Shown: positions 54,220 to 57,574 of the stretch, one piece after another
How the letters are laid out: each line of letters opens with the position of its first letter
Position numbering within the stretch: the stretch's first letter is position 1
Origin: Microcoleus sp.
GTDB taxonomy: Bacteria; Cyanobacteriota; Cyanobacteriia; Cyanobacteriales; Microcoleaceae
Length of the DNA stretch: 64,000 bases
Assembly: GCA_042408215.1 (NCBI GenBank)
Contig: JAYFMW010000017.1
Span: 160,001-224,000, forward strand
Direction: 5' to 3'
Position numbers and translations under genes: made by a program
Notes under the pieces: generated by a model
Databases searched by the model: none
Told to the model about the DNA's origin: nothing
What the model saw: the letters and a program-made list of their open reading frames with translations, nothing else

Positions 54220-54528
54220 TCAATTATCAACATCGGTGAACAGGGCTGACAAATCTCGATAACCACTGACAACTCGAAATATTTCTACATCCTGTCCGAT
54301 CGGCATATAGAGTATAAGATAGTTATCCATCGGGAGACTGCGTAGACATGGCAAAATCTCGTCTCGTTGTCGTCCAAGGTTGGGAAACTGAGCAATTTTA
54401 GCCAATTTTGCTTCGAGCTTGCTTAAAAAGCGATCGGCTTTATCGAGTCCAGATTGACTAGCGATGTAATCTGCAATTTGCTCAATGTCTTGAATTGCGG
54501 GTTCAGTGAGGCGAAATTGTGGAGTCAT
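54220..54528 (-). CDS. ParE/RelE family toxin
   Basis: AIQDIEQIADYIA...FPNLGR...YLILY...IFRVV..RDL. Confidence 0.9.
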   Translation of the reverse strand: MTPQFRLTEPAIQDIEQIADYIASQSGLDKADRFLSKLEAKLAKIAQFPNLGRQRDEILPCLRSLPMDNYLILYMPIGQDVEIFRVVSGYRDLSALFTDVDN

Positions 54529-54794
54529 GGTTCTAATGAAGTGTAGCGCGATCGCAGGTTGGCTCGAATTTCTGCCATTGCAGTTACACCGTCTACGACT
54601 TCGCCGCGTTGGGATGCTTGCTCACCAATTAGTGCATCTCGTTGGAGTTCTTGCAGTCGTCCTTGATAAATGTCTTCCTGTTGTTCGAGTAGTTGAATGG
54701 CTGCGAGGATGACTTCGATCGCACTTTTGTATTTGCCAGTCGTGAGTTGACGCTGCACGAGGGCTTCGACTTCAGGTGACAAAACAATTTGCAT
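54525..54794 (-). CDS. ParD-like (RHH) antitoxin
   Basis: MQIVL..GKYKSAIEVI; overlaps the toxin start. Confidence 0.85.
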   Translation of the reverse strand: MQIVLSPEVEALVQRQLTTGKYKSAIEVILAAIQLLEQQEDIYQGRLQELQRDALIGEQASQRGEVVDGVTAMAEIRANLRSRYTSLEP

Positions 54795-54947
54795 GGCGTT
54801 TGAGAGGAAAAGTGTTAATTCTATTGTAGGCGATTCACGCTCGGCATAGCTCCGCTCGCGCGTACTTCAGTTAGATTTTTTGGATGAACGAATCGCACCC
54901 CTACACTGACTATTATATAATTATCAATACCATTAACGGCGAAGCCA

Positions 54948-55010
54948 ATGCGTTTTGATACCTACATCCAGTCAATTCAGAACAATCTCCAGCGGGGAAG
55001 CGAGCGCACC
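54948..55010 (+). pseudogene. Possible N-terminal remnant of a type IIG/ISP-like restriction-modification enzyme
   Basis: MRFDTYIQSIQNNLQRGSER resembles N-termini I recall from cyanobacterial N6-methylase-fused enzymes; the similarity ends abruptly. Confidence 0.3.
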
Positions 55011-55032
55011 GATCTATTCAAATCAACGCTAA

Positions 55033-55338
55033 TTAATCTTCCCCTAACTCTGAAAACAATAACTCCAAGTCTCGATCGCCCCGCAGCACGCGAGCAATAT
55101 CAATCCCGTCCGATCTGGGGTAGTAAAAAATTAAATAATCCCTAACAATAAATCCGCGCAAGTTGGGGGATAACCTCTCATAGCGTTTGCCCATATTGGG
55201 AAATTCGGCGACAAGTTTACATTTTTGACGAATTGCATCAAAAAGCTCGCTGGCCGCCCTGGAACTATTGCCAGCAATGTACTCGCAAATATCATTCAAA
55301 TCTCGGACAGCTTGATCTGAAAATGTATAACTGTTCAT
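55033..55338 (-). CDS. ParE/RelE family toxin
   Basis: AVRDLNDICEYIA...FPNMG...YLIFY...IARVLRGDRDL. Confidence 0.9.
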   Translation of the reverse strand: MNSYTFSDQAVRDLNDICEYIAGNSSRAASELFDAIRQKCKLVAEFPNMGKRYERLSPNLRGFIVRDYLIFYYPRSDGIDIARVLRGDRDLELLFSELGED

Positions 55339-55589
55339 GCCCCTGACTTTTCTATGCGATCGATCTTTTCTTGAATTTTGGCAAACACAAGTTCTCCATC
55401 TGTCACTTGTCCCTGAGCAATTTGTGCAGTTCCAACGGCTATTTTCTGGCGGAGTTCTTCGATGCGTTGTTTCCGTTCTCTTAAAAGTGCGATCGCTTCT
55501 CCAATTATTTCTTCAGCGCTGCCATATTTTCCGCTTTGAATTTGCGATCGAATAAACTCTTCGTATTCCGGCTTTAAGACAATATTCAT
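55335..55589 (-). CDS. ParD-like antitoxin
   Basis: MNIVL..SGKYGSAEEII; overlaps the toxin start. Confidence 0.85.
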   Translation of the reverse strand: MNIVLKPEYEEFIRSQIQSGKYGSAEEIIGEAIALLRERKQRIEELRQKIAVGTAQIAQGQVTDGELVFAKIQEKIDRIEKSGA

Positions 55590-55910: not shown

Positions 55911-56212
55911 AATTCTATGCAGCTTCATAAAAAATTGGTATAACAATAAATTGGATTTTAGGTTATTTCCCAACCTATGCTAAGCTGTTCGGCATTTAAA
56001 CTCCTCCGCGTAGGGTGCGTCAGTATTATGAGGTTTTCCGTTTCAACTTTGCTAATTGTTACAACCCGCAAATAGCGGGGCAGATACTACAAAAAACTAC
56101 GAAGAACGAGCCGGAAACCGATGATAGCGAGTGCCAGGTATCGGAAACGTAGAACAGGCATGGCTTCGTGATTTTATTGCCTGTAATAAATCTTTATGAA
56201 ATCCTGAAACGC

Positions 56213-57574
56213 TTAGATGTTACACTTTACAAGTCTCGACGCGAGAGAAGAAGAAACACCAAACCCCTTCCCCATCATCAATAGACACATCTCCAACCCA
56301 AACTGATAATAAAAAACCCCACACGGGAGGTGAGCTTCTGGTGCTTTCTCTGAAAAAGTGATCTCTTTGTAGTACAGCCCTGAGTTATTTTTTCTCCAAC
56401 CTACCTTGTCGCTAAACGCTTCCCATACTTTTTCATCATATTCCCTAGTTCCCCCCAAACTTTGATAGATGCGCTTCTGCACGCTAAAGCCGAAGCGCCC
56501 ATTGCTGTATTGTACCCAAAGTTGGTCAATGGTACGCAAGTCCTCGCAGGGAAAATTATCAATACTTTCTAATTCTGAATTCAGCCATCCTTCTTCTTCC
56601 CTACCCGCCACCTTCAACATCACTCTCGCCGTTTCCTCATCGGCTTCTTTCCATTTTTTAGCCGCCAATAAATTCCGCAAGTTTGTATAATCCATTCCCA
56701 CGGCTGAAATCAATTGTATCTCAGGAGGCGCTGGTTTTGGCTCAGGGGACGGTGCTAATGCTGTCAATACTTGTTCTGCTGTCCATCTTTTTGATCGCTC
56801 TTTTTCCAAGCATCCTCTGACTATCGCCGTGAAGGGTTCTGGTATTTTTGACCAGTCTATTTCTGGCTGTTCTTCCATAATCTTTTTCATTAATTCTTGG
56901 TCTGTGTTTCCTGTGAATGGTAGAGTTCCTGTCAGGATTTCTGCTGTCATGATTCCCAGTGACCACATATCCCATCCTGTTCCTACTACTCCCTGATAGG
57001 ATTCTGGGGGAACATAGGATGGTGTACCTTTTATATCTTGGGTTCTCAGCGAGTTGGTGCCGATTTCTCGCAGCAGTCCCAAGTCGGATACTTTCCATTT
57101 ATCCGCTGCGTATAGCAGGTTGGCTGGTTTGATGTCTCTGTGGACTTTTCGCGGATCTGAATTGTGTAGGTAATTTAATACTGCTGCTGTGTCTCGGACT
57201 ATTTTTTGTACTTCTGTTATGGAGAGTTTTCCGGTTTTTAGTTTTTTTTCTAGGGTGATTGTGGCGATTTCCATGACTATGAATAAATATTCGTCTTCTT
57301 TGACTTCGCAGCAGCCTACTGTGTAGCTACGGATGATGTTTTCGTGTAACAGGTTGGCTGCTGCTCTTATTTCGTTTAGTTGTTTTTTGGCTTTGGTTTC
57401 ATCTTCTTCTAAGGCGATTAGTTTGATTGCTACTTCCCTGATGAAATCGTCTTTGATTACTTCATCTGCTTTGTATACGGCTCCATATCCTCCACATCCT
57501 AGGTATTCTTCCAGGTAGTATTGTTTGTTGACTGTTTCGCCTTGTAGTCTTCTCCAGTGTCTTTCTGGGTACAT
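56213..57574 (-). CDS. Ser/Thr protein kinase fused to a C-terminal GUN4-like domain
   Basis: Kinase motifs GCGGYG, VAIK, HRDIKPAN, SDLG and PPE; GUN4 motifs LRNLLAAKKWKEADEET, FPCEDLRTIDQLW..YSNGRFGFSVQK and HLP. Confidence 0.92.
   Translation of the reverse strand: MYPERHWRRLQGETVNKQYYLEEYLGCGGYGAVYKADEVIKDDFIREVAIKLIALEEDETKAKKQLNEIRAAANLLHENIIRSYTVGCCEVKEDEYLFIVMEIATITLEKKLKTGKLSITEVQKIVRDTAAVLNYLHNSDPRKVHRDIKPANLLYAADKWKVSDLGLLREIGTNSLRTQDIKGTPSYVPPESYQGVVGTGWDMWSLGIMTAEILTGTLPFTGNTDQELMKKIMEEQPEIDWSKIPEPFTAIVRGCLEKERSKRWTAEQVLTALAPSPEPKPAPPEIQLISAVGMDYTNLRNLLAAKKWKEADEETARVMLKVAGREEEGWLNSELESIDNFPCEDLRTIDQLWVQYSNGRFGFSVQKRIYQSLGGTREYDEKVWEAFSDKVGWRKNNSGLYYKEITFSEKAPEAHLPCGVFYYQFGLEMCLLMMGKGFGVSSSLASRLVKCNI

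Follow-up and report, generated by a model that had tools for sequence, protein, structure and literature searches.

To our knowledge, the known prokaryotic systems for targeted diversification all rely on either template copying or the shuffling of stored cassettes. V(D)J recombination adds N nucleotides through RAG, a transposase-derived nuclease, together with TdT. Diversity-generating retroelements (DGRs) have a misincorporation bias that leaves C low. Cyanobacterial DGRs act through a reverse transcriptase (RT) on a C-type lectin fold, and vary the 3′ end of a ligand-binding domain that follows kinase, caspase or TIR N-termini in dispersed paralogous targets (PMC7517822). Another group of relevant enzymes is formed by the REPtron/RAYT (TnpA-REP) proteins and the TnpA-Y1 subclasses, which are described as having an HUH/Tyr core, host-gene-like conservation and a long C-terminal extension (bioRxiv 10.1101/279083). 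HUH enzymes are known for cleavage and rejoining and are not known to polymerise. Hypervariable cyanobactin cores are likewise held between fixed flanks, and the sections on these clusters in PMC4663559 and PMC6162287 mention, without assigning it a role, a transposase that separates the precursor from the F gene.

The locus described here shares features with each of these systems. It lies in a window of 64,000 nucleotides from Microcoleus sp. (contig JAYFMW010000017.1, positions 160,001 to 224,000), in which the following features were delimited:

57574 to 56213, minus strand: Ser/Thr kinase gene with a C-terminal GUN4-like domain, 453 aa, the target (from Pfam and a GUN4 structure match).
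56325 to 56332, minus strand: 5′ anchor CACCTCCC, His-Leu-Pro codons (from a position table of homologues and its sharp edge).
56254 to 56324, minus strand: variable insert with a G/T-rich coding strand and thus an A/C-rich transposase strand (from composition and homologues).
56213 to 56253, minus strand: 3′ anchor with the three-frame tail, whose stop codons lie at 56227-56229, 56220-56222 and 56213-56215.
56193 to 56226, plus strand: predicted sigma-70-like site, directed towards the insert and antisense to the target gene (best offset over 58 loci; degenerate here).
56131 to 56251, plus strand: cis element of fixed length, 121 nt, between the transposase end and the insert, beginning GTGCCAGGTATCGG (from homologous loci).
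56048 to 56152, plus strand: 3′ remnant of a convergent RAYT-like Y1 transposase gene, the last ~34 codons and the stop (from relatives; the intact gene at L255 ends in the same peptide).

We regard this arrangement as a probable example of a widespread, transposase-coupled hypervariable module, which sorts with neither DGRs nor insertion sequences and works like untemplated junction diversification. It differs from DGRs in having no RT, no template repeat and no adenine specificity, in a length that is not kept, and in pairing a GUN4 fold with an HUH transposase. The original prediction had already set it apart from classical DGRs on the grounds of length and template, and both grounds held. 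In contrast to integron or shufflon cassette systems, no conserved neighbouring recombinase and no stored cassettes or donor were found. If the module operates as proposed below, it would resemble N-nucleotide addition in its transposase-derived nuclease, untemplated fill, frame lottery and placement in a binding loop; the enzymes are unrelated, a single locus is involved and no segments are joined, so the likeness is one of analogy.

In the 453-aa product, Pfam places the kinase at residues 21-271 and GUN4 at 291-418. The original prediction of a G/T-biased segment directly after the HLP codons was reproduced to the letter: the 69 nt at 56255-56323 on the minus strand, starting right after CACCTCCC(G), contain 10 A, 2 C, 27 G and 30 T, as against 16-37 A per 69 nt in the remaining gene. 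Equal or higher G+T richness occurs in only 67 of 213,366 tiles of 69 nt in the genome. The boundary is sharp on the 5′ side, where the third base of the Pro codon (56324) already varies, and is blurred by 0-3 nt on the 3′ side. The tail terminates in each frame with the peptides that had been claimed (SLASRLVKCNI, FSRVETCKV and LLSRRDL), and Ser-Arg is encoded by the 3′ anchor and tail in all of them. Three-frame stops alone are weak evidence, because 5.5% of random genomic 39-mers stop in three frames within 39 nt. The evidence for a frame-proof tail is instead that homologues use all three frames (10, 15 and 21 times, n=46). Within the same genome, four of the six GUN4 loci carry a G/T-rich stretch after HLP, three of these four have a near-exact 3′ anchor, and the four jointly use all three tail frames; the two loci without the stretch are the canonical GUN4 and one fixed paralogue.

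GUN4 matches were present in all 31 genomes searched. From the fetched loci 108 tails were parsed, after 14 further GUN4 matches without a parsable HLP had been dropped; 51 tails have the anchor at no more than three mismatches, and their inserts, 46 of them distinct, form the set considered here. The claim of variable-length, G/T-biased sequence between two fixed anchors is borne out by these 46 inserts, which cannot be aligned, span 24-149 nt (a separate count of inserts gave 18-120 nt) and consist of 44.6% G, 32.0% T, 14.0% A and 9.4% C, compared with 31% A in the upstream domain. Composition is equal at all codon positions, and dinucleotide ratios for G and T are near 1 with no codon-position structure. 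Stop codons occur in frame in one of the 46 inserts and in the other two frames in 29 and 22. The inserts are thus near-random sequence from which selection has purged in-frame stops. Two patterns of growth were considered and rejected, namely a telomerase-like repeat (k-mers are not strongly enriched, the highest being TGG at z 3.6 and GTGG at z 3.8) and polar, CRISPR-like addition (both halves of 42 inserts are equal in composition). Anchor duplications were seen once for each anchor in 42 inserts, against 0.24 and 0.10 expected. Partial anchor copies lie inside the inserts of L318, L319, L239, L261, L150 and L151, and in L318 and L319 the copy starts close to the predicted RNA start. At L104, L116 and L292/L309, GUN4 domains follow one another in a single frame and every domain has a separate insert; arrays of GUN4 genes that end in one transposase were found there as well.

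These properties bear on the view that the segment is an unconstrained loop shaped by slippage and mutational bias, with the transposase a mere passenger. Tandem duplications within the inserts of L196 and L213 and the low complexity of the sequence are what slippage would leave. We nevertheless hold this explanation to be very improbable, as k-mer periodicity is absent, the boundary is sharp, inserts are replaced wholesale with zero change in the flanks, and 71 of the best 80 of 535 transposase loci face a GUN4 gene.

Wholesale replacement is seen between closely related units. Two genomes contain four units that share 98-99.5% identity along 880 nt but have unrelated inserts of 41-85 nt. The closest counterpart of the window gene is 97% identical in the kinase and 94% beyond the anchor, with an unrelated insert, and in three further pairs (L006/L041, L025/L103 and L100/L110) domains 85-97% identical and shared flanks surround unrelated inserts. 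The expectation that homologues would be unalignable inside the anchors is therefore correct for such pairs but not for several frozen paralogue groups, in which the same 68-, 89- or 60-nt insert persists throughout a genus; in the 68-nt group the anchor is worn and the downstream element lost. Replacement was also followed in contigs from four sequencing runs of two studies (X3-X6), with L181, an intact unit, as the reference. In X5, L181 1069-1767 is spanned by a single contig that departs from it at 24 letters and has 7 gaps, and the listed differences (23 substitutions and the listed gaps) all fall within L181 1495-1558. Contigs of X6 branch at L181 1494 and 1560; depth is 6.5 over the reference insert and 14-18 over the flanks. 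X4 carries the reference insert, equal to L181, and X3 yields no contig spanning the insert at a depth of 5-6, which proves nothing by itself. Because the data are contigs from two studies and the mats may mix strains, they demonstrate replacement at the level of strains rather than clonal activity. At the end of L015 and the start of L044, an assembly break falls exactly at the insert, as mixed inserts in a sample would give.

Such differences could also arise from an existing pool of cassettes that recombine at the anchors, with Y1 nicks as an aid, and so pass from one paralogue or strain to another, with no present writing of new sequence. Identical inserts do occur in different genomes or samples (L012/L016, L019/L097, L027/L099 and L321/L324/L330), and 15 metagenome matches show the same mixture of novel and shared inserts. 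Cassette exchange is nonetheless quite improbable, given that 46 of 51 inserts are distinct, that a pool would still need a source of codon-blind G/T sequence, and that neither donor nor store was found: the own inserts match their own genome no better than shuffles do, and 55 of 57 anchor matches in the 31 genomes come after a GUN4 domain. The two exceptions are a match at a contig start and an orphan with a 6-nt non-adenine spacer. The orphan, at L060 1487-1532, has both anchors ~6 nt apart after murF with no GUN4 domain; its spacer is the shortest seen, as in a remnant or an empty site, and the orphan is closely preceded on the same strand by an A/C-rich run.

The position of the insert within the GUN4 fold was read from solved structures. 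The GUN4-like domain aligns with them as far as HLP, query residue 133 corresponding to residue 209 of 1y6i, and the insert takes the place of residues equivalent to SynGUN4 209 onward. Among GUN4 residues, Pro208 and Leu210 point into the pocket, and porphyrin is bound by Arg214 and Arg217 (PMC1084334). The alignment thus indicates that the insert replaces the porphyrin-binding determinants. Because the canonical GUN4 of L034 matches the anchor in one frame, this anchor is probably a descendant of the former terminal helix.

The original prediction saw no responsible enzyme in the window. No complete gene for one is present, but the conserved DNA beyond the target stop proved to belong, on the other strand, to the final part of a gene for a Y1 HUH transposase. 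L035 has this gene intact, and its remnant at 56048-56152 points to a candidate. The genome itself holds two transposase remnants and one distant Y1 gene, and an intact copy was not found in it. As only remnants were found, the window copy is probably dormant, an orphan of its transposase. Across the genome collection the family comprises 535 loci. In the best 80 of these, ranked by likeness to a GUN4-linked query and drawn from many cyanobacterial genera, 71 transposases face a GUN4 gene and 73 are intact; several of the nine without GUN4 are contig ends or truncated targets. No third recurring neighbour gene appeared at these 80 loci, the next cluster reaching 10 of 80. A query from another clade gave 35 matches in 401 genomes, and the 30 that were fetched comprised 22 facing GUN4, four facing cyanobactin precursors and four facing neither. 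The suggested search for a co-occurring RT, polymerase or recombinase ended with a coupled Y1 transposase and no RT at the 80 loci.

The transposase resembles RAYT proteins in several respects. His60, His62 and Tyr122 are invariant in 109 sequences and the C-terminal extension is conserved; profiles match PF01797, and NF047646 at 73.6 bits, below its cut-off of 80. The PDB gave no sequence match. For the predicted structure (pLDDT 74.7; an earlier model at pLDDT 51 was too poor), the top Foldseek match is 4er8, E. coli TnpA-REP, while Thg1 matches were disregarded at an rmsd of 12-14 Å. The median dN/dS is 0.046 and the maximum 0.43 (64 pairs from 73 genes), which indicates purifying selection as on a host gene. 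Carriage by phages was rejected, as viral contigs gave zero relatives. REPtrons have multi-copy REP hairpins with GT[AG]G feet on their flanks, and their enzyme cleaves and rejoins the hairpin in single-stranded DNA; neither the upstream regions of the 80 loci nor the own genome's two matches to the element motif pointed to a dispersed multi-copy REP family. Unlike REPtrons, the module has a single fixed element, confined to the 3′ side, which overlaps the end of the target gene and is linked to a hypervariable coding segment. It shares with IS200/IS605 elements the Y1 fold, a presumed single-strand chemistry and an element where the right end would lie, but it has no left end and no TnpB, and its targets are not varied, lying at GUN4 ends in 71 of the best 80 of 535 loci and at GUN4 or cyanobactin ends in 26 of 30.

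The fixed element is recognised by GTGCCAGGTATCGG, which occurs in 55 of 58 loci and at -121 in 46; the own genome has two matches at one mismatch. The anchor was absent within eight mismatches from 13 of the best 80 of 535 loci. Upstream of the transposase gene nothing is conserved: no 9-mer is common to more than four of the 80 loci and no upstream motif is shared. The putative antisense promoter in the GUN4 clade has its best offset at a position analogous to that in the cyanobactin clade but is weaker, with 17 of 58 loci reaching 8/12 against 16 of 58 for a coding-strand offset, and its signal does not stand out without the A2/T6 rule. A promoter scan of the window lists no site at 56193-56226, so the site is weak in this copy. 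Two other interpretations of the anchors were rejected or set aside: a conserved hairpin (pairing is complete in only 32 of 58 loci, and compensatory changes are absent) and a Shine-Dalgarno sequence on the other strand in the 5′ anchor (which varies between genera). Rfam gave a single match, by chance.

The gene ends might simply be the home site of a selfish Y1 element, and the inserts tolerated repair scars with no adaptive role. Remnants do greatly outnumber intact genes, frozen groups exist, and scar-like anchor duplications were noted by eye in L104, L150, L151, L318 and L319. We consider this unlikely, since the element would have no left end (at most four of 80 loci share an upstream 9-mer), the transposase appears to be under strong purifying selection, the scar would sit exactly on a ligand pocket and on cyanobactin cores, and the tail accommodates all three frames while in-frame stops are purged.

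A writer enzyme was sought more widely. The own genome has three anchor copies, all within GUN4 genes, and none serves as a template repeat. RT-like matches were absent from the 80 loci (13 of 16 RT ORFs used as queries), and the four RT matches of the own genome resemble group II intron RTs. No RT class, as defined by size and motifs, is common to all of five complete genomes. Five genomes with intact units yielded no X-family, Y-family or AEP polymerase, in a search whose AEP control missed bacterial LigD. The described terminal transferase preference of a group II-like RT (T=A>G>>C) matches the coding strand in its scarcity of C and in nothing else. A DGR variant, in which an RT slips on an adenine-rich template to give G/T-rich cDNA of variable length, is largely refuted and has very little probability left. 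The 3′-terminal variable region on kinase, TIR and caspase proteins recalls cyanobacterial DGRs (PMC7517822), the low C recalls their bias, and DGR-like RTs were found in one of the five genomes; other genomes with fresh inserts lack them, however, no template-like copy exists among the 57 anchor matches, and the RT results given above argue the same way. One genome with a transposase-GUN4 array has two DGR-like RTs as well (L279, L283).

Cyanobactin precursors provide a second target. A piece of the transposase lies within 250 nt of 32 of 55 precursor-tail matches, a set that includes one false precursor and two entries interrupted by gaps, and accompanies 23 of 45 tails picked by the tail motif alone. 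In 42 of the 55, a predicted sigma-70-like site faces into the core at -16 to -11, mostly at -14; by a scan of the window, such sites arise by chance about once per 500 nt, both strands counted. The cores (n=43) encode 7-24 aa with a mild G/T bias only, G+T being 58% against 48% in leaders. The transposases that face cyanobactin genes form a separate clade (SH-aLRT 100) in a quick tree from which L343 was left out and in which L349 is 34% filled. Judging from position and genus-level names, the transposase noted in PMC4663559 and PMC6162287 would belong to the same family. Cyanobactin-clade transposases at L248 and L269 had no adjoining precursor that was found, and GC-rich repeats follow L269. 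At L149 and L226, the facing gene downstream of the transposase encodes a peptide that has a double-glycine leader and a repetitive core, and may represent a third target class.

The explanation we favour, and judge likely on balance, is a two-part diversifying module made of a domesticated RAYT-like Y1 HUH transposase and a fixed cis element, placed tail-to-tail with its target gene. Transcription from the antisense promoter-like site would open the DNA, the Y1 enzyme would nick the single strand at the anchors so that the old insert is dropped, a free 3′-OH would be extended without a template, and the gap would be closed by the Y1 enzyme or by microhomology repair; any resulting length would be rescued by the three-frame tail. 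As to the writer, addition by the Y1 protein and tailing of an antisense RNA with copying back are equally tentative proposals, and a housekeeping polymerase at the nick is slightly less favoured than either. As part of the same likely reading, the module would rewrite the ligand pocket of GUN4 and, in the sister clade, the cores of cyanobactins. A bolder version, to which we give an even chance, is a retroelement-free diversity generator in which an antisense promoter steers an HUH transposase to rewrite a coding segment untemplated, possibly adding the nucleotides itself, and which builds GUN4 pockets and is the source of anacyclamide- and piricyclamide-type cores. Several points count against the model: HUH enzymes are not known to polymerise, polymerase and RT candidates are lacking, the GUN4-clade promoter is weak, many inserts are frozen and X4 equals the reference. 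The unconserved anchor hairpin, the few anchor duplications, the mild cyanobactin bias and the ranking of the 80 loci by a GUN4-linked query count against it too.

Literature searches, in a collection with few subscription papers, found no paper describing this GUN4/Y1 system, which may be an undescribed bacterial route to new binding pockets and peptide products. If the model is true, bacteria have a counterpart of N-nucleotide addition that writes random sequence of variable length into a binding loop, a RAYT-like class of open role gains a function, and the origin of hypervariable cyanobactin cores becomes directly testable. The module is compact, with one 250-aa gene and ~150 nt, and might be used to generate libraries in vivo. 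Immediately beyond the transposase remnant, the window has two ParD-ParE toxin-antitoxin pairs in tandem (54220-55589), adjoining a PD-(D/E)XK nuclease gene.
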